IMG/VR virus record: IMGVR_UViG_2703718820_000015
Coordinates: 1-36,246 of that record
Reading direction: 5' to 3' (one strand)
Length of the DNA: 36,246 nt
DNA from: a virus
Taxonomy: Duplodnaviria; Heunggongvirae; Uroviricota; Caudoviricetes
Part shown: piece after piece, positions 1,657-33,974 of the stretch
Layout: each line of letters begins with the position of its first letter
Numbering within the stretch: position 1 is the first letter of the stretch
Made by a program: the position numbers and the translations under genes
Notes under the pieces: generated by a model
Told to the model about the DNA's origin: nothing
The model's database searches: none
The model's input: the letters and a program-made list of their open reading frames with translations, nothing else

Positions 1657-3582
1657 TTAGGCAGAAATATTCACAATCCCCCATGTACTTCCATTCCACA
1701 CCCATTGGACAGTAGGGTCGGAAGGATATGTTGCTGGAGATGTTCTGTAGGACACCAAGCCGATTGGGAAAGAACCTGTGTTCTCTGTCACAGTAGGCTT
1801 TGCGCTAGATCTCATTTTTACTTTCTCCCATCCGCAGAATACTGGAAGAAAGGTTCCGTTATACGGGCTAAAATACGCTCCTCCAACATAAGCGCTCATT
1901 CCGGATTCAACTGTAATCCTTAATCTGTATGCTTTACTTTTGTCGTTGGTTGGCGCTGAAACTTTGTATAACTTCCACCCTCCAACACCCATATCGTAGA
2001 ACTTATTAACTGACATATAGATGGAATTAGTACCATCTTGGGCTTCTATAGCTATCTCAAGTGGTGTGTCGCCTTTAAAGTAAAAAGCTCCACGAATGAA
2101 ACCTGTCTGTGTTTTAGTTAAATTTAGGGTTATTCTGCAACGTTGAGATGCGTTAGTGACTCCAAACCATCTACCGCAGCCAGATGGTTCATTAGGGTCA
2201 GAACCAACCTTTCGTTCGTTCGGTATAATTAAAAGGGAATAGTCAATAGGTGCTCCGTAGACTCCATCAATAACCGACCAATCTCCAGAAGGGCAAAGAT
2301 TAGAACCGGAGACACTGAACGTATCTCCTCCCTGTGCGCCTGCTGTAGGGTCTGTCCCTAATATGGTATTCATGGGGCTCATGGTTGAGGCCCAGTTACC
2401 ATATTGCACACGCGCGCCAAGTATGGTCCACGGCCCACGTATTTTCCCATTGCCCGTAACCTCGCCATACAAACCTATCACAACATTATGCTGATTTGGG
2501 GTGCTATTGTTATAGAGCAAATAATCGCCGCTTCCCGATGTGTCAAGACCTATAAATGTGTTTGCGTTCCCCTCATACGGAGCACCGGTCTGGCGACTAA
2601 AACCCGATCCAGTTATGATCAGACCACCACCGCAAAGCTGCTCAAATGTATTTTGATTTATAGATCCATCAGAGATGTCAATTATGAATCTGCCACCACC
2701 TGACGTAGTACCTGTTTTGATGCGTACAAATTGATTCCAAAAACTCCCGCCACCCCATTCAACCAACCCAGGCAGAGTGTATGCGTCTGATGATAAAAAT
2801 CTTATATCGCCGGTCGTATCAATGTTCGAGATAATAGAAAACTGTAGCCCTCTAATGTATAACGATTTACATGAAAGGCCAGTTACATTTATAGATTTAC
2901 TATGAAGGATTAGGAAATCCCCGTTAGGGATTCGGCCAACACAATCAACGTTACAGCGGATCACAAAGCGACCAGCAGAAGCATGAATGCCAGTCAGCTT
3001 GGTCATATCAACGACATAATCGCCTGGAGGGATATGCAATGATTTTCTGTTTTTCCCATACTCAACTAATTGTGAATAATCACCGTTAGCATAATCCAAT
3101 GCCTCACACAGTTTAGCAGTAACATCTGTACCATCCGGGAATACTCCCCATCCACGCACGTCTAAATCATCACGCCAGCGAGAAATCTGCAATGCGGGAT
3201 ATTTGGTTGCCCCATCAGGGTCTTCAATCTGCTGCCTTAACTGATCTGGGTCGTACTTCAGCACATTAGGAAAATAGAACTGCTGCGCACCATATGCATC
3301 ATAAACAGCCATAGAGTGGCCTTGCACAGTTACGAACTTGGCAATCTGTCCGTTATATACCGGATATCCAGCAGCATTAATGATGATTGGTTGCGAAACA
3401 GGAACGTGAGAGCCGTCTTCGTTCTCTATATAAACCTGAATCTGGTTTTCAGGATTTACCGGGTCAGTGTCAATTTTACCGATATAAATTTTGCCATTGG
3501 CTACGGCTTTAAAAGAACGAGCCATAGTGAAGAGTTGCGAAGGCATACTCACTACAACATTGGCATTTATTGAATCTGTCAT
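1657..3582 (-). CDS. Tailspike protein (P22 gp9-type head-binding domain plus receptor-binding domain)
   Basis: N-terminus [47 protein letters not shown] matches the conserved P22-family tailspike head-binding domain. Start moved to the internal ATG at 3580-3582, which has a GGAG SD; ORF-track start at 3618 is rejected. Confidence 0.9.
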
Positions 3583-24113: not shown

Positions 24114-24400
24114 GGCTTAATCTTCCCCTCCTTCAGTAGTATCGCCTGCGTCCTGATCACGCCTTCGAGGTGGTAAAGTCTGGCGTCTTTGTTGTCGAGA
24201 TTATGGGTGCGTCGGTCGATTTCATCGTGACACGCGCTACAAGCCCATGCGCCGATCAGGTCGTCAGGCTTCATTCCCGTTCCGCAAATTCCAGCCATCC
24301 GGTAATGTGCCAGAACTGTAGTTTCAGGATTACCATTGCATACGCCGTAAATACGTACCTGGCATTCTCTGCCGCGTGCTTCTTTGCGTAGATTAGCCAT
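24110..24400 (-). CDS. Cys-rich nin-region protein (possibly DUF1364-type zinc-binding)
   Basis: 96 aa with spaced Cys/His residues (C..C...C..CSACH); family assignment is from memory only. Confidence 0.45.
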   Translation of the reverse strand: MANLRKEARGRECQVRIYGVCNGNPETTVLAHYRMAGICGTGMKPDDLIGAWACSACHDEIDRRTHNLDNKDARLYHLEGVIRTQAILLKEGKIKP

Positions 24401-25122
24401 TAAGCAGCCTCCCCTGTTACTTTCAGCATTCCGTTATCGAGCAGCTTTCTGGTCAGCCACTGTTGACCACGCCCGGTGATTTTTGTGGTGAACGATATCT
24501 GTATTCCGTGATTTGTGTTGACCGCTGTTTCTTTCACTGTGAAATAGCCGCGATCCATATATTCCTGCATTGGCACATTGCGCCGGGAACCTGAAGCAAT
24601 AAGGATTTTGTGATCGCGCATCCACGCAAACAGTTTGTTTGGACCAATACCGACAACCTTTGCAAAGTTTCCAATCAAAATTCCGCTGGCCTCGCCAACG
24701 CGATCGGCAAACTCAACTTTAGGTGCGGCAATTGCAAGCTGGTTTTCCAGTTGCATTTTCTGCTCAGCAAGATCAGCAGCAAGGCGCAACGCTTCCGGTA
24801 GCGTTTTGGGGATATTAACCGCAGCTTCTTCAAGATCTCGCCAGCGGTCAACAAGGCGAGCGGTGAACTCTGGCGACAACTGGGCAACAACAACAATACT
24901 ATCTCGCTTACCTTGTTCGCCTTCGAAGACGTAATGCTCGTACTGAACATTGAACCCTAAGTTATTGATTCTTTCGGAAACCTCAATTTGAGGAAGCCGG
25001 ATAACACCATTTTTAGCCAGCGTTTCGATGGTACGTTTCACATTGTCATGACGCTTACCCACCAACTCAGCGATTTCAATGCTTGTCATTTTGATGGCAT
25101 TGCCATTTATTAACTCATTCAT
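24400..25122 (-). CDS. Rha-family regulatory protein with KilAC-type C-terminal domain
   Basis: 240 aa; N-terminal segment (IKMTSIEIAELVGKRHDNVKRTIETL) resembles the Rha domain; C-terminal half resembles antirepressor KilAC domains. Confidence 0.65.
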   Translation of the reverse strand: MNELINGNAIKMTSIEIAELVGKRHDNVKRTIETLAKNGVIRLPQIEVSERINNLGFNVQYEHYVFEGEQGKRDSIVVVAQLSPEFTARLVDRWRDLEEAAVNIPKTLPEALRLAADLAEQKMQLENQLAIAAPKVEFADRVGEASGILIGNFAKVVGIGPNKLFAWMRDHKILIASGSRRNVPMQEYMDRGYFTVKETAVNTNHGIQISFTTKITGRGQQWLTRKLLDNGMLKVTGEAA

Positions 25123-25285: not shown

Positions 25286-25464
25286 CTTGTTTTCCTCGCA
25301 CGTTCTCTAAGCCACCGGATATCCCACAGGTGAGCCGTGTAGTTGAAGGTTTTTACGTCAGATTCTTTCGGGATTGGCTTGCGTTTATTTCTGGAGCGTT
25401 TCGTTGGAAGGTATTTGCAGTTTTCGCAGATTATGTCGGTGATACTTCGTCGCTGTCGTCTCAT
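25282..25464 (-). CDS. ninE: NinE-like protein
   Basis: 60 aa [37 protein letters not shown]...; GGAGGG SD; ATGA overlap with the upstream gene. ORF-track extension to 25554 rejected. Confidence 0.7.
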
Positions 25465-25988
25465 GCCGCCCTCCTGGCGCCCTGTCCGATCGCCATCAAT
25501 GCCGATTTGGATACGGTAGTAAACATCCGTCGAGGACTGATGAACGGTCGCCAAATCAGCAGCATGGAACCTTTGCTGTTTCCCTTCTTCTCCAGCCCTG
25601 TCGATGGTTCGATAAAATTAATCCGTCCATCAGTGATGATGCGAACTTCGTCGACACTCTCCAGAGCCTTGCTGAACCATCCGACTGACATATCCTCTGG
25701 CACAAGCATCACTACCGTCTGTCGCTGTTGTATGCACTGCTCAGCGGCTTTTTCCACCCACGGCCTGATATTGCTGTACGGTGGGTTATTCCAGATTGCA
25801 CCGTGGCTTACCCACTCAGAATTGAGCGCGTCGTCGGCCTCAGTTAGCCAGTGAGCACACAGAGCATTTTTGTCGCTCGCTGCCGAATCCAGCCAGAATC
25901 CAAACTCAATATCCAGTGCATCAAAAAGCCAAAGCGGCGTTTGCCAGCAGTCCTTGTCGTGTGCTGGCGTATTTGATTTGATAGTCAT
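25461..25988 (-). CDS. Phage Dam-type DNA N6-adenine methyltransferase
   Basis: 175 aa from the ATG at 25986-25988 (ATGA overlap with ninB stop); NPPY catalytic motif (WNNPPYSN). Confidence 0.75.
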
Positions 25989-26431
25989 GCAGCCTTCCCT
26001 TTTCGTTGTGACCATTCATACTCTCGCCGGGAGTCATCACTCCACCGCACGTTGCGCTCTGAGCCGAACCAGAACATGATTTCGATAAGCTCAGTCATGC
26101 TGGCCTTTCGCATTTTGCTGGTACGAACGCCAAGCATAACAACGCCACCGTCGATACCAGGCGCACTTCTTTGCTCCATTTTTTTGGTCTTAAGCCACAA
26201 GGCAGTGAACAGGTCTTTCCAGTCTTCCGGCGCCAGCCGTTGACCATGCCATAGCACCTGACGCGAAACATCGTTCAGCATCGGCCACATACGGTCATTC
26301 TGCGCTTTGCTGCGTTTGGGTTCTCTAACGTGGACTTCGTGGGGTGACTTGTCGTCGATGGGTAGTGAGAGAATGGCGTCTATGACGTTATTTCTGATTG
26401 CTTCGTTGCGAAGTATGTATATTTGCTTCAT
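25985..26431 (-). CDS. ninB: NinB recombination protein
   Basis: 148 aa; motifs DVSRQVLWHGQ and WSDDSRREYEW parallel lambda NinB as recalled. Confidence 0.8.
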   Translation of the reverse strand: MKQIYILRNEAIRNNVIDAILSLPIDDKSPHEVHVREPKRSKAQNDRMWPMLNDVSRQVLWHGQRLAPEDWKDLFTALWLKTKKMEQRSAPGIDGGVVMLGVRTSKMRKASMTELIEIMFWFGSERNVRWSDDSRREYEWSQRKGKAA

Positions 26432-30041: not shown

Positions 30042-30257
30042 TTAAGCGGCTTTGTGTTCCGGCGGGAACACGTCATCAAGACTGACTTTTGCGCCTAACT
30101 TGTTTAGGCACTCAACAAGAGCACGGCATGTTTTAAGGTCTGGGAAGCGACGACCAGATTCCCAATGTCCGATAGCTCCCTGTGTGCATCCAACTGCCTT
30201 AGCAAGTGTTGTTTGAGAGATATTCAGTGACTCTCGATATTTTCGTAGGTTGCTCAT
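30042..30257 (-). CDS. cro: Cro-like repressor (HTH XRE family; not lambda Cro)
   Basis: 71 aa MSNLRKYRESLNISQTTLAKAVGCTQGAIGHWESGRRFP...; GGAGGG SD; divergent from cI. Confidence 0.85.
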   Translation of the reverse strand: MSNLRKYRESLNISQTTLAKAVGCTQGAIGHWESGRRFPDLKTCRALVECLNKLGAKVSLDDVFPPEHKAA

Positions 30258-30368
30258 ATGCCCTCCATAGTAACCATGAAGCAATAATACGATATGTACT
30301 TTTAGAATGCAAACAAAAAATACATCTTGTGCATGGATGATTTTAGTACAGAGCGTAATAATAAGGGT
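30258..30368. promoter_or_regulatory. OR/PR/PRM region
   Basis: Minus-strand PR (-35 TTGCAT, 17-bp spacer, -10 TATTAT) with a 16-bp operator-like site AAGTACATATCGTATT overlapping it (30286-30301); a second related site near 30341-30356; plus-strand TAATAA -10 just before the cI ATG suggests a leaderless PRM transcript. Confidence 0.6.
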
Positions 30369-31028
30369 ATGAAAATGAAATGGTATGAACTGGCTAGATC
30401 CAGAATGAAAGAGCTCGGCATAACTCAAGAGAAGTTAGCTGAAGAGCTTGGTATGACGCAGGGTGGAATTGGTCACTGGTTGCGCGGATCTCGTCATCCA
30501 TCTCTTGACGAGATTGGTGTGGTGTTTAAATACCTTGGTATTGATAACGTCTCATTCAACCACGACGGTACATTTTCACCTGTTGGCGAATACTCATCTG
30601 CCCCCGTTAAAAAACAATATGAGTACCCTGTTTTTTCTCATGTTCAGGCCGGGATGTTCTCGCCTGAGCTTAGAACCTTTACCAAAGGTGATGCGGAGAG
30701 ATGGGTCAGCACAACCAAAAAAGCCAGTGATTGTGCGTTCTGGCTTGAAGTTGAAGGTAATTCCATGACCGCGCCAACAGGATCCAAGCCAAGCTTTCCT
30801 GACGGGATGTTAATTCTCGTTGACCCTGAGCAGGCTGTTGAGCCAGGTGATTTCTGCATAGCCAGACTTGGTGGTGACGAGTTTACCTTCAAGAAACTGA
30901 TCAGGGATAGCGGTCAGGTGTTCCTACAGCCACTAAACCCGCAATATCCAATGATTCCATGCAATGATAGCTGTTCCGTAGTAGGGAAAGTTATCGCCAG
31001 CCAGTGGCCTGAAGAGACATTTAGTTAA
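30369..31028 (+). CDS. cI: CI-type prophage repressor: heterologous HTH N-domain fused to a lambda-like S24 C-domain
   Basis: From [20 protein letters not shown] to the end the protein matches the lambda CI C-terminal domain as recalled; the N-terminal HTH domain is unrelated to lambda CI. Start is either 30369 or 30375. Confidence 0.9.
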
Positions 31029-31060
31029 CAGCCTCACAACTCTAAAACACACAACAATAA

Positions 31061-31089
31061 CCCGACCTTAGCGTCGGGTTTTCTTTTTC
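31061..31089 (+). terminator. Intrinsic terminator downstream of cI
   Basis: CCCGAC-CTTAGC-GTCGGG hairpin followed by TTTTCTTTTT. Confidence 0.7.
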
Positions 31090-31153
31090 CAAAATATAAA
31101 CCCATTAAATACAAAGCGTTATAAAAAACTAATTATATTTAGAACATTTTGTA

Positions 31154-31182
31154 TTGACTCGATAAAGTACAAATCGTACTAT
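31154..31182 (+). promoter_or_regulatory. pL promoter with overlapping operator OL1
   Basis: -35 TTGACT (31154-31159), 17-bp spacer, -10 TACTAT (31177-31182); operator-like AAGTACAAATCGTACT at 31165-31180, 14 of 16 identical to the OR site. Confidence 0.65.
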
Positions 31183-31223
31183 TTAGCCATCAGCAGGACG
31201 CACTAACCACCATTGAAGGTGAG

Positions 31224-31253
31224 GCTCTTAAAAATTTAGCCCTGAAGAAGGGC
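31224..31253 (+). promoter_or_regulatory. nutL (boxA GCTCTTAAA, boxB GCCCTGAAGAAGGGC)
   Basis: Matches lambda nutL as recalled, between pL and N. Confidence 0.85.
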
Positions 31254-31521
31254 AGCATTCAAAGCAGAAGGCTTTGGGGTGTGGTGAAGCCAGCTAGTCA
31301 CTGGCAAGTGCTTACCTACTGTTGAGCGGTGAAGCGCTCCCAACGCTAGCAATAGCGTGGACGAGATGGGGAGCCGCGGGCGATAAGGCCGCCATAACGC
31401 GCACGTTGTCGCATGGAAAAATCGCTGGGGTGCCGGTTATCCCCCTCCGAATGAGACTCAACAAGCTGGAGCTAGACTACCAGCCACCACACCACCAAAG
31501 CTAACTGACAGGAGAATCCAG

Positions 31522-31854
31522 ATGGATGCACAAACACGCCGCCGCGAACGTCGCGCAGAGAAACAGGCTCAATGGAAAGCAGCAAATCCCCTGTTGGTTG
31601 GGGTAAGCGCAAAACCAGTTAACCGCCCTATTCTCTCGCTGAATCGCAAACCGAAATCACGAGTAGAAAGCGCACTGAATCCGATAGACCTTACGGTGCT
31701 GGCTGAATACCACGAACAGATTGAAAGCAACCTGCAGCGTATTGAGCGCAAGAATCAGCGCACATGGTACAGCAAGCCACGCAGTGAAATGGGTGTGACT
31801 TGCTCAGGCCGCCAGAAGCAACGCGGAAAATCAATTCCAGCTTATTACGATTGA
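31522..31854 (+). CDS. N: Antitermination protein N (lambda type)
   Basis: 110 aa; arginine-rich motif MDAQTRRRERRAEKQAQWKAAN and most of the body match lambda N as recalled; C-terminus diverges. Confidence 0.9.
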   Translation: MDAQTRRRERRAEKQAQWKAANPLLVGVSAKPVNRPILSLNRKPKSRVESALNPIDLTVLAEYHEQIESNLQRIERKNQRTWYSKPRSEMGVTCSGRQKQRGKSIPAYYD

Positions 31855-31862
31855 GGTGAGAT

Positions 31863-32114
31863 ATGGAATTTCATGAAAGTGCGATTTGTGATTTTCGCGC
31901 TAACGCAAATTCAGTAAAACCACAGCCAATTGCAGTTCTTTTTAAAACAATGGGTTCGTGGGCTGTTTTATGCTTCGCCGCTGATGACACTGACGCAAGA
32001 ATGGCAATAGGCCAAGAGATGGAGATGGACCCGACAAACGCTGAATTCATAATTTATGGCGCTCCATCTAATTACTTACTTGATACCTGCAACATTTACA
32101 ACAAGGCTGCCTGA
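31863..32114 (+). CDS. Hypothetical protein (83 aa) in the ral/sieB position
   Basis: ORF immediately after N; ends in KAA; no family recognised. Confidence 0.45.
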   Translation: MEFHESAICDFRANANSVKPQPIAVLFKTMGSWAVLCFAADDTDARMAIGQEMEMDPTNAEFIIYGAPSNYLLDTCNIYNKAA

Positions 32115-32250
32115 TGGTGGCCTTCATTTTTGGCATAAACAACAGAATAAACACTGCACTGTGTATTCATTCCAACGAGTGAATACACGGAGCAATGTCG
32201 CTCGTAACTAAACAGGAGCCGACTTGTTCTGATTATTGGAAATCTTCTTT

Positions 32251-32277
32251 GCCCTCCAGTGTGAGGGCGATTTTTTA
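32251..32277 (+). terminator. Intrinsic terminator (tL-like)
   Basis: GCCCTC-CAGTGT-GAGGGC hairpin followed by GATTTTTTA. Confidence 0.7.
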
Positions 32278-32296
32278 TCTGTGAGGATATGAACAG

Positions 32297-32665
32297 ATGT
32301 CAAACATCAAAAAATACATCATTGATTACGACTGGAAAGCATCAATAGAAATTGAAATCGACCATGACGTAATGACAGAGGAAAAACTTCACCAGATTAA
32401 TAATTTCTGGTCAGACTCTGAATACCGACTCAATAAACACGGCTCTGTATTAAATGCTGTATTAATCATGCTGGCGCAACATGCTCTGCTTATAGCAATT
32501 TCAAGCGACTTAAATGCATATGGTGTTGTGTGTGAGTTCGACTGGAATGATGGAAATGGTCAGGAAGGATGGCCTCCAATGGATGGTAGCGAAGGAATAA
32601 GAATTACCGATATCGATACATCAGGAATATTTGATTCAGATGATATGACTATCAAAGCCGCCTGA
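32297..32665 (+). CDS. Hypothetical protein (122 aa), AT-rich
   Basis: ORF with upstream GAGGA; markedly AT-rich; ends in KAA; no family recognised. Confidence 0.5.
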   Translation: MSNIKKYIIDYDWKASIEIEIDHDVMTEEKLHQINNFWSDSEYRLNKHGSVLNAVLIMLAQHALLIAISSDLNAYGVVCEFDWNDGNGQEGWPPMDGSEGIRITDIDTSGIFDSDDMTIKAA

Positions 32666-32740
32666 GTGCGGCTTTACCGCATACCAATAACGCTTCACTC
32701 GAGGCGTTTTCGTTATGCAATCAAATATAAGGAGTTACCC

Positions 32741-32875
32741 ATGATGCACTTTCAGCTCGCGGGTAGCGGCGTCATGTCCGCTTTCTACCCGCACGAATCT
32801 GAATTATCACGCCGAGTTAAACAATTAATCAGAGCAGCAAAGAAACAACTGGAGGCGTTATGCGCAATGAAATAG
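32741..32875 (+). CDS. cIII: CIII-like protein (protease inhibitor protecting CII)
   Basis: 44 aa from the ATG at 32741 with strong AAGGAG SD; core YPHESELSRRVKQLIRAAKKQL parallels lambda CIII as recalled. ORF-track upstream extension rejected. Confidence 0.55.
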   Translation: MMHFQLAGSGVMSAFYPHESELSRRVKQLIRAAKKQLEALCAMK

Positions 32876-33009
32876 CCATCAATCACCAGATGCTTCGTGC
32901 GGCACAAAACAAAGCAGTAATAGCCAGATTTATTGGTGATTCCAAAATGTGGCTTGAAGCAAATAAAGAGATGAAATCAGCTATCAACCTTCCGTGGTAT
33001 CGCAGGAAA
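32860..33009 (+). CDS. kil: Kil-like small protein (candidate host cell-division inhibitor)
   Basis: 49 aa, GGAGG SD; motif AVIARFIGDSKMWLEANKEMK resembles lambda Kil as recalled. Confidence 0.5.
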
Positions 33010-33087
33010 TGAGTTTTACAGATAACTGGTCAGACGAAGAATTCATTCGTCAGATGAAAGAATTAATCGGTAACGAAGGAGATATTC

Positions 33088-33258
33088 ATGTCACTTGCAA
33101 CCACAGTGAAGGAGAGCAAGTTACAGAGACGCATGTACACGCAGAAAGCTCTCTGGTATCGCCATAATGGTGACCGCGAAGGAATGCGGGTATGCCTTAA
33201 TTTGTCCCGAGTCGAAGTATTAAATCAGCGTTATTTCCTTGGGCCGTGTCCATTCTGA
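33088..33258 (+). CDS. Small protein upstream of the annealing-protein gene (56 aa; absent from ORF track)
   Basis: ATG at 33088 preceded by a strong GAAGGAG SD; an overlapping 52-aa frame (33009-33167) is an alternative. Confidence 0.35.
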   Translation: MSLATTVKESKLQRRMYTQKALWYRHNGDREGMRVCLNLSRVEVLNQRYFLGPCPF

Positions 33259-33266
33259 GGTGAATT

Positions 33267-33974
33267 ATGGATTTGAATAAATTCGATGAGCCATTCAGCC
33301 CCGAAGATATCGAATGGCGAATACAGCAAAGCGGTAAAACACGCGATGGCAAGGTGTGGGCTATGGTGCTGGCTTATGTCACGAACCGGGCAATCATGAA
33401 ACGCCTGGACGATGTTTGCGGCAAAGCAGGATGGCGCAATGAATACCGCGATATTCCCAACAACGGCGGAGTTGAATGCGGCATATCAATCAAGATTGAT
33501 TCCGAATGGGTAACCAAATGGGATGCTGCTGAAAACACGCAGGTAGAAGCCGTCAAAGGTGGTCGTTCCGGTGCAATGAAGCGTGCTGCCGTTCAGTGGG
33601 GAATCGGTCGGTATCTGTATAACCTTGAGGAAGGTTTCGCACAAACATCTCTCGACAAAAAGCAGGGATGGCACAGGGCAAAACTCAAGGATGGAACAGG
33701 ATTTTACTGGCTCCCTCCATCGCTGCCGGGCTGGGCAATCCCAGCATCAGATAACAAACCATCACCAGAAAATACCAACCAGAAATCTCCATCGGTTGAC
33801 TGCGAACAAATCCTGAAAGACTTCAGCGATTATGCAGCGACAGAAACTGACAAGAAAAAACTCATCGAGCGTTATCAGCATGACTGGCAATTAATGGCTG
33901 GAAACGAGGAGGCGCAGGCTAAATGCGTTCAGGTAATGAACATCAGAGTTAACGAGCTAAAACAGGCGGCATAA
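33267..33974 (+). CDS. Single-strand annealing protein, probably Rad52/Erf superfamily
   Basis: 235 aa, GAGGTGA SD; motif KRAAVQWGIGRYLY resembles the conserved signature of phage Rad52-type annealing proteins (from memory); sits directly upstream of ssb. Confidence 0.6.
   Translation: MDLNKFDEPFSPEDIEWRIQQSGKTRDGKVWAMVLAYVTNRAIMKRLDDVCGKAGWRNEYRDIPNNGGVECGISIKIDSEWVTKWDAAENTQVEAVKGGRSGAMKRAAVQWGIGRYLYNLEEGFAQTSLDKKQGWHRAKLKDGTGFYWLPPSLPGWAIPASDNKPSPENTNQKSPSVDCEQILKDFSDYAATETDKKKLIERYQHDWQLMAGNEEAQAKCVQVMNIRVNELKQAA

Follow-up and report, generated by a model that had tools for sequence, protein, structure and literature searches.

Genes and signals between N and cIII

We analyzed positions 31,863 to 32,665 of a genome of 36,246 nucleotides (nt) from a virus of the Caudoviricetes (IMG/VR record IMGVR_UViG_2703718820_000015, positions 1 to 36,246), hereafter called the window. 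This interval follows the antiterminator gene N and contains two open reading frames (ORF), ORF83 and ORF122, which encode proteins of 83 and 122 amino acids (aa) both ending in Lys-Ala-Ala (KAA), at 31863-32114 and 32297-32665, as described in an original prediction made by reading the sequence alone. That prediction regarded both proteins as unrecognised. The statement holds for ORF83, which has no Pfam family and no assigned function, whereas ORF122 is the lambda protein Ea10, and the spacer between the two genes carries PreS, a small RNA (sRNA) also known from lambda. The interval is very probably a mosaic copy of a known segment, the early-left (pL) region of lambda and of Shiga toxin (Stx) phages, in a P22-like Escherichia coli phage.

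The features considered are listed below. Folding significance is expressed as a z score obtained from shuffled sequences, and terminators were identified by a scan for a GC-rich hairpin followed by a T-run.

31154..31182, + strand: pL-like promoter TTGACT-17-TACTAT, downstream of the cI-like gene and upstream of nutL and N (promoter scan)
31223..31253, + strand: nutL, composed of a boxA-like sequence GGCTCTTAA and of boxB GCCCTGAAGAAGGGC (31239-31253), identical to the boxB of lambda (sequence reading; the boxB hairpin was also found by the scan)
31522..31854, + strand: antiterminator N of the lambda type, 110 aa (Pfam N36, E 1.6e-26; PHROG 271)
31863..32114, + strand: ORF83, 83 aa, family of VT2-Sakai orf20 and HK106 gp42 (PHROG 2471)
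32103..32131, + strand: terminator-like hairpin and T-run with the ORF83 stop codon in the loop (-13.9 kcal/mol, z -2.7)
32159..32190, + strand: 14-bp hairpin whose last base is the first base of PreS (-18.2 kcal/mol, z -6.2)
32190..32277, + strand: PreS (LPR1), Hfq-dependent sRNA of 88 nt, seed core at 32225-32241 (published primers; identity with lambda)
32249..32277, + strand: intrinsic terminator, lambda tL2a, 3' end of PreS (terminator scan and folding; name from bioRxiv 10.1101/2024.10.31.621285)
32297..32665, + strand: ea10 (Ea10, DUF2528), 122 aa, isoelectric point (pI) 4.3 (122/122 identity with lambda; Pfam)
32654..32675, + strand: hairpin with the ea10 stop codon in the loop, without T-run (-12.1 kcal/mol, z -3.1)
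32689..32714, + strand: terminator-like hairpin (stem 32689-32708) and T-rich tail after ea10, presumably lambda tL2b (scan; folding z -4.2)
32741..32875, + strand: cIII (Pfam cIII, E 2e-30)

The + strand of this region has the layout of a lambdoid early-left operon. A gene for a cI-like repressor is present at 30327-31028, and the genes downstream of cIII are kil and those of a Rad52-like annealing protein and of a protein resembling single-stranded-DNA-binding (SSB) proteins. The remaining part of the window is P22-like and about 95% identical to CUS-3, Kapi1 and phiv205-1. Judged by alignment, the segment under study is already known, since its arrangement equals that of VT2-Sakai and its ea10 and PreS/tL2a sequences are identical to those of lambda.

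The sRNA PreS in the spacer

A strong terminator had been predicted between the two genes, and it was confirmed here: a stem of 8 pairs, rich in GC (32249-32270), is followed by TTTTTT up to 32277 (-12.9 kcal/mol, z -3.7). Its description as a plain terminator splitting the genes did not stand, because the element is lambda tL2a, the 3' end of a known sRNA. LPR1, renamed PreS, is an Hfq-dependent sRNA encoded between ral and ea10 in lambda and ending at tL2a (bioRxiv 10.1101/2024.10.31.621285). It appears as a band of 88 nt and a processed band of 68 nt and is expressed during the lytic cycle. By pairing with dnaN it increases the initiation of translation, and it supports the replication of phage DNA (Silverman et al., bioRxiv 10.1101/2024.10.31.621285). 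A literature search on tL2a gave only unrelated papers among the matches listed. The cloning primers P1107 and P1108 (Table S5 of that work) bound positions 32190-32277 of the window; these 88 nt agree exactly in length with the upper band of the published northern blot. The seed-deletion primers P970 and P971 map to 32225-32241. Over these 88 nt, seed included, the window is 100% identical to lambda. Using a dnaN leader rebuilt from published primers, we calculated a PreS-dnaN duplex of -41.3 kcal/mol, versus -22.1 +/- 3.8 kcal/mol for shuffled PreS (RNAduplex, 500 shuffles). A scan of 30800-33400 with Rfam 15 returned nothing at E <= 1, and PreS has no Rfam family.

The hairpin preceding PreS had been reported as a 9-bp stem at 32159-32186. 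It is real, but larger, with 14 pairs extending to 32190, and none of 200 shuffled sequences folded as well. The complete stretch formed by this hairpin, PreS and tL2a is identical in the window, lambda and HK106; from 32097 to the start of ea10 the window and lambda are near-identical, and so are all three sequences from the last codons of the upstream gene through the terminator, with a few mismatches upstream of 32148. As no promoter-like site was found near 32150-32190 by the promoter scan, the 5' end of PreS would probably arise by processing. The 14-bp hairpin may define this processed end or protect the upstream mRNA. The region, used as query, matched 329 of 50,697 phage records. In 30 sampled records the left junctions of the match fall at seven query positions (1, 109, 130, 148, 157, 167 and 173), none of which enters the 14-bp hairpin by more than 3 nt. 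The right junctions are located just past the T-run or within ea10. Since the junctions spare the hairpin, hairpin and PreS appear to travel as one conserved core.

The spacer between ral and ea10 of lambda thus has the same elements as that of the window: PreS, the 5' hairpin, the GC stem with its U-tail, the downstream ea10 and the complementarity to dnaN. The difference concerns the upstream gene, which is ral in lambda and ORF83 in the window, where sieB-ral is missing between N and the sRNA. Because no sieB-ral region intervenes, PreS of the window may be reached by a polymerase that is not modified by N.

Three sites of the + strand fit the description of a terminator (32103-32124, 32249-32270 and 32689-32708), and all of them fold better than shuffled sequences. 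The first and the last, as well as the hairpin at 32654-32675, come in addition to the features of the original prediction. The hairpin at 32103-32124 surrounds the ORF83 stop codon and has the tail CATTTTT; the same element follows ral in lambda. When sequences were folded one by one, stop-codon hairpin and T-run were found to be retained in the Citrobacter, Klebsiella and Salmonella-phage homologues of ORF83, which are about 70% identical to it. Two additional reading frames were noted in this part of the spacer. An ORF of 22 codons, starting at an ATG that overlaps the ORF83 stop codon, was rejected because lambda has ATA at this place. An ORF of 51 aa (32056-32211), called orf19 in VT2-Sakai, runs through the ORF83 terminator and the 14-bp hairpin into the start of PreS, and is probably a spurious call over RNA elements.

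ORF83 at the position of ral

In the window, 8 nt separate the stop codon of N from the start codon of ORF83. In most loci examined ORF83 is the first gene after N, which is either of the N36 or of the N_peptide type (at least two Pfam families). In one Salmonella P22-like phage, a gene of the opposite strand annotated as superinfection exclusion lies between the upstream gene and ORF83. Neither ral nor sieB (searched by tblastn with lambda SieB) was found in any of 82 ORF83 loci, and PreS was present downstream in 80 of them. When ORF83 was compared with lambda Ral by BLASTP, no alignment was obtained at E <= 100. In phage 21, ral directly follows N and precedes the same terminator, ea10 and cIII. 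Ral of lambda and phage 21 has in common with ORF83 the slot after N and the DNA of the 3' junction (the N-K-A-A-stop codons, the hairpin and the T-run). It differs in its size of 66 aa and its richness in Cys; ORF83, with 83 aa, has no Cys-rich counterpart and no sequence similarity to it. Given this absence of similarity and the mutual exclusivity of the two genes, ORF83 is a positional alternative to ral and not its homologue. From the alignments, ORF83 replaces sieB-ral as a cassette, with a junction inside the last four codons (N-K-A-A-stop) that coincides with the 5' arm of the hairpin. The view of the interval after N as a slot for accessory genes agrees with this location.

The mosaic organization of the region is also apparent in other phages. 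HK106, with the order N, gp42, terminator and cIII, is about 98% identical to the window in ORF83 and in the PreS core and differs by the lack of ea10. Relative to HK106, ea10 (32282-32678 of the window) is a clean insertion or deletion between the T-run of tL2a and the next terminator-like hairpin. VT2-Sakai (Sp5) has the order N, orf20, ea10, cIII and kil as in the window. It differs in having another type of N, gam and bet where the window has the Rad52-like recombinase and SSB, and a virion module unlike the P22-like one of the window. A prophage of E. coli strain 4750 carries an extra cassette at each of two places: N and ORF83 are separated by a short ORF, and a DUF7446 gene lies downstream of the ORF83 terminator, ahead of the PreS hairpin. 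This short ORF of about 55 aa (MLKKVKRRLYKEGRYSCQLPKCDTTKW...; 1856-2035 of locus L003) and ORF83 are both preceded by TTGAGGT(A/G), which suggests short linkers at cassette boundaries. The second slot, between the ORF83 terminator and the PreS hairpin (32115-32158 in the window), is occupied by at least seven different small-gene inserts in IMG/VR loci; they measure 250-567 bp and include DUF7446 and membrane-protein-like products of 120-148 aa. Of the 61 loci where this slot could be measured, 35 have it empty (45 nt), as does the window. Based on the extra cassettes and the variety of inserts, we consider the interval from N to PreS as a hotspot for accessory genes.

The original prediction suggested anti-restriction and exclusion functions, so that the interval would encode two novel proteins of this kind split by a plain intrinsic terminator. 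The presence of ORF83 in the ral slot, mutually exclusive with ral and sieB, argues for this explanation, as do the location in a cassette hotspot with at least seven alternative inserts and the fact that both proteins are small and acidic, neither of them having a demonstrated function. We nevertheless regard it as improbable, for ORF122 is Ea10, known since the lambda sequence, the terminator belongs to a characterised sRNA, and knock-down of ea10 has no plating phenotype in lambda. Neither protein has any match in PADLOC or NCBIfam, nor an anti-restriction or exclusion match in Pfam. Profile searches detected no homology of ORF83 to Ral, SieB or gene-17 proteins, and ORF122 matched DUF2528 only. 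In addition, ORF83 depends on pL and has no promoter of its own. Since pL is repressed in lysogens, ORF83 is unlikely to serve exclusion in a prophage and would more likely act during lytic growth. Neither protein yielded evidence of an anti-restriction or exclusion function. The interpretation of the interval as a mosaic copy of the lambda/Stx-phage segment is preferred.

Ala-Ala endings and overlapping nucleic acid signals

The ending shared by ORF83 and Ea10 is part of a broader tendency. Seven of the 59 non-overlapping ORFs of the window end in Ala-Ala (binomial P ~8e-7); all of them lie in early regions, and none is structural:

24400-25122, - strand: ORF ending in Ala-Ala
25461-26015, - strand: ORF ending in Ala-Ala
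25985-26431, - strand: ORF ending in Ala-Ala
30042-30257, - strand: ORF ending in Ala-Ala
31863-32114, + strand: ORF83
32297-32665, + strand: ea10
33267-33974: ORF ending in Ala-Ala

ClpX recognises the ssrA tag, the core of which is a terminal Ala-Ala. Together with the excess of such endings in early regions, this would be compatible with an ssrA-like degradation tag through which ClpXP or ClpAP keeps early proteins short-lived. We judge this explanation quite unlikely because the terminal codons always coincide with a nucleic acid signal, either a hairpin arm or a Shine-Dalgarno/ATG overlap. In ORF83, AAG-GCT-GCC makes up the 5' arm of AAGGCTGCC-TGAT-GGTGGCCTT, the hairpin that precedes the T-run; in Ea10, the KAA codons AAA-GCC-GCC are the 5' arm of the hairpin at 32654-32675. 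The Ala-Ala endings of the nin region and of the recombinase consist of a Shine-Dalgarno-like purine run and GCN-GCA, which lead directly into the stop codon and the next ATG. Moreover, the divergent ORF83 homologues keep the stop-codon hairpin and the T-run while their C-termini vary (KQAA, KQAV, KLVA and also QPA), and Ea10 is reported to be abundant, which does not favor a degradation tag either. Lambda Ral ends in NKAA, and the DNA homology between the window and lambda starts at ACAACAA(G/A)GCTGCCTGA. As the endings are hairpin arms of the form AAR-GCN-GCC placed before the stop codon, the shared KAA reflects RNA/DNA signals and not protein function. The striking KAA/AA pattern of early proteins thus has an ordinary explanation, namely hairpin arms and ribosome-binding signals that overlap stop codons.

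Ea10

ORF122 is identical to lambda Ea10 in 122 of 122 residues. It matches the Pfam family DUF2528 (PF10800) with 160.6 bits for a cut-off of 22 (E 1.8e-47), over profile positions 1-104 of 104. Near the end of the gene, the only difference from the lambda DNA that was noted is a synonymous AAA/AAG change in the last Lys codon. As in lambda, ea10 is located upstream of cIII. The AT-richness attributed to this gene is moderate, with 38.5% GC versus 47.8% for the whole window. In lambda, ea10 is non-essential. Ea10 has been reported as an abundant early protein. Its role is described as "not fully understood" (bioRxiv 10.1101/2024.10.31.621285).

Structure prediction, which had been proposed for both proteins, was informative for only one of them. 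The AlphaFold2 model of Ea10, built with 62 family members, is confident (pLDDT, the predicted local distance difference test score, of 95.2; pTM, the predicted template modelling score, of 0.87). Its chain is predicted to run through two strands, then four helices, then a last strand. Foldseek of this model against the PDB found nothing (best E 3.5), and a PDB sequence search gave nothing significant for Ea10 or ORF83. The model of ORF83 is poor (pLDDT 58); its comparison with the PDB by Foldseek, with no match at E <= 0.001 and template modelling scores of at most 0.44, is uninformative.

Two functional readings of Ea10 were considered, and both appear very unlikely. According to the old lambda annotation "ssb" and to many database names, Ea10 would be a single-stranded-DNA-binding protein: GenBank J02459 and several other records use ssb or ssDNA-binding protein as its name. 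The predicted fold is unlike that of known ssDNA-binding proteins, and the protein is acidic, not basic, which speaks against this role as far as a model permits. It is just as improbable that Ea10 is an SPFH (band-7)-like domain acting on the FtsH/HflKC axis with its neighbour cIII; none of the 62 family members gave a Band_7 profile signal, and the likeness to SPFH domains is no more than a weak lead.

Homologues of Ea10 with a DUF2528 domain, 39-53% identical to it, were observed in Mu-like prophages of Salmonella, Oceanobacter and Serratia (3001-3378 or 3001-3354 of loci L012-L015). These genes come after MuA/MuB-like genes, in Serratia immediately behind the MuB-like one, and lie near Mu Gam, GemA or Mor. 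From the occurrence of homologues in Mu-like prophages, the family extends beyond lambdoid phages, and Ea10 is a general early accessory protein of temperate phages that is not tied to cIII.

The ORF83 family

The profile PHROG 2471 covers the full length of ORF83 (E 5e-60). ORF83 is about 98% identical to VT2-Sakai orf20 (VT2-Sap20) and to HK106 gp42, and the exact protein was found on 114 contigs, where it is labelled hypothetical on every one. Homologues from Citrobacter, Klebsiella, a Salmonella phage and a metagenome are about 70% identical to ORF83, and in comparison with them the ratio of nonsynonymous to synonymous substitution rates (dN/dS) is 0.08-0.14. Synonymous sites are saturated, and the length of 83 codons is constant across the Escherichia, Citrobacter, Klebsiella and Salmonella-phage copies. 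The ATG is preceded, at a distance of 4 nt, by the sequence GAGGTGA. With 11 acidic versus 5 basic residues, the protein has an acidic pI of 4.3.

A word-indexed search returned 18 close relatives, all from Enterobacteriaceae where the source organism is named. Relatives below about 60% identity were found neither by this search nor with an HMMER profile against 1.84 billion representatives. Two long repeat proteins that came up in the HMMER search, P0019 (44 stretches) and P0022 (12 stretches), were rejected as summed low-complexity artefacts. A scan of species-representative genomes gave 2 loci only. ORF83 has no Pfam match at E <= 0.1. Our literature searches gave no papers under the name VT2-Sap20, and a search of the literature on lambdoid anti-defence yielded no mention of ORF83. 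Given its pattern of substitutions and its distribution, ORF83 can be taken as a real, strongly constrained gene of a narrow enterobacterial prophage family. That it would be a chance ORF and no gene, as the missing Pfam family and the poor AlphaFold2 model might suggest, is hardly credible in view of the low dN/dS, the saturated synonymous sites, the constant length, the GAGGTGA motif before the ATG and the full-length PHROG match.

Proposed working of the operon and possible role of ORF83

In lambda, N permits polymerase to read through terminators. In the window, a polymerase starting at pL would cross N and ORF83 without meeting any intrinsic-terminator-like site, so that ORF83 would be an immediate-early, N-independent gene. 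This proposal relies on the terminator scan, which found no terminator-like site on the + strand from pL to 32103; as a consequence ORF83 is probably co-transcribed with N independently of antitermination. Without modification by N, polymerase would halt either at the hairpin over the ORF83 stop codon or at tL2a, and the transcripts that end at the latter would be trimmed on their 5' side just past the 14-bp hairpin to give the 88-nt PreS. As in lambda, and assumed here from the 100% identity, PreS would bind Hfq and pair with the host dnaN leader, leading to more beta-clamp and to phage DNA replication. The N-modified polymerase would read through to ea10, cIII, kil and the recombination genes, as is established in lambda. 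The dependence of the second gene on N, put forward in the original prediction, is plausible by analogy: the window has a lambda-type N (N36) and a boxB identical to that of lambda upstream, and two terminator-like sites precede ea10.

Within this scheme, we tentatively propose that ORF83, as an immediate-early product, inhibits a host or defence factor during lytic growth and stands in for Ral. The arguments are its position, its timing, its charge and its mutual exclusivity with ral; the proposal is a possible one, with the odds rather against it. Slightly more doubtful still is the wider view that ORF83 founds a new immediate-early family devoted to counter-defence or host takeover, a functional alternative to Ral exchanged as a cassette through the N-K-A-A-stop/hairpin junction.

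Several points weigh against the reading presented here. The function proposed for ORF83 is deduced from position, timing and charge only; the protein has no homology to characterised proteins, and its model, at pLDDT 58, is poor. Rho-dependent termination upstream of ORF83 is possible. Termination efficiency, read-through by N and PreS processing are all transposed from lambda. An alignment of 7 sequences over the ORF83 stop-codon hairpin contains one-sided changes only, with 71% paired, no better than column shuffles; as there is no excess of covariation, the conservation of this hairpin rests on the separate folds. Finally, PreS does not follow the divergent ORF83 homologues, and ORF83 and PreS are therefore best viewed as separable modules.

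The main practical value of this analysis is a correction of annotation: the "second unknown protein" of the interval is Ea10 of lambda. The window also carries an intact PreS, which escapes detection by Rfam 15 and is unannotated in the phage records examined. The role of Ea10 becomes a sharpened question, that of a protein with a confident predicted fold and no clear match among solved structures. The same applies to the role of the ORF83 family, which is present in Stx2 phages of O157:H7. If ORF83 is indeed a counter-defence protein, its expression before any terminator means that it could act upon entry of the phage DNA into the cell.

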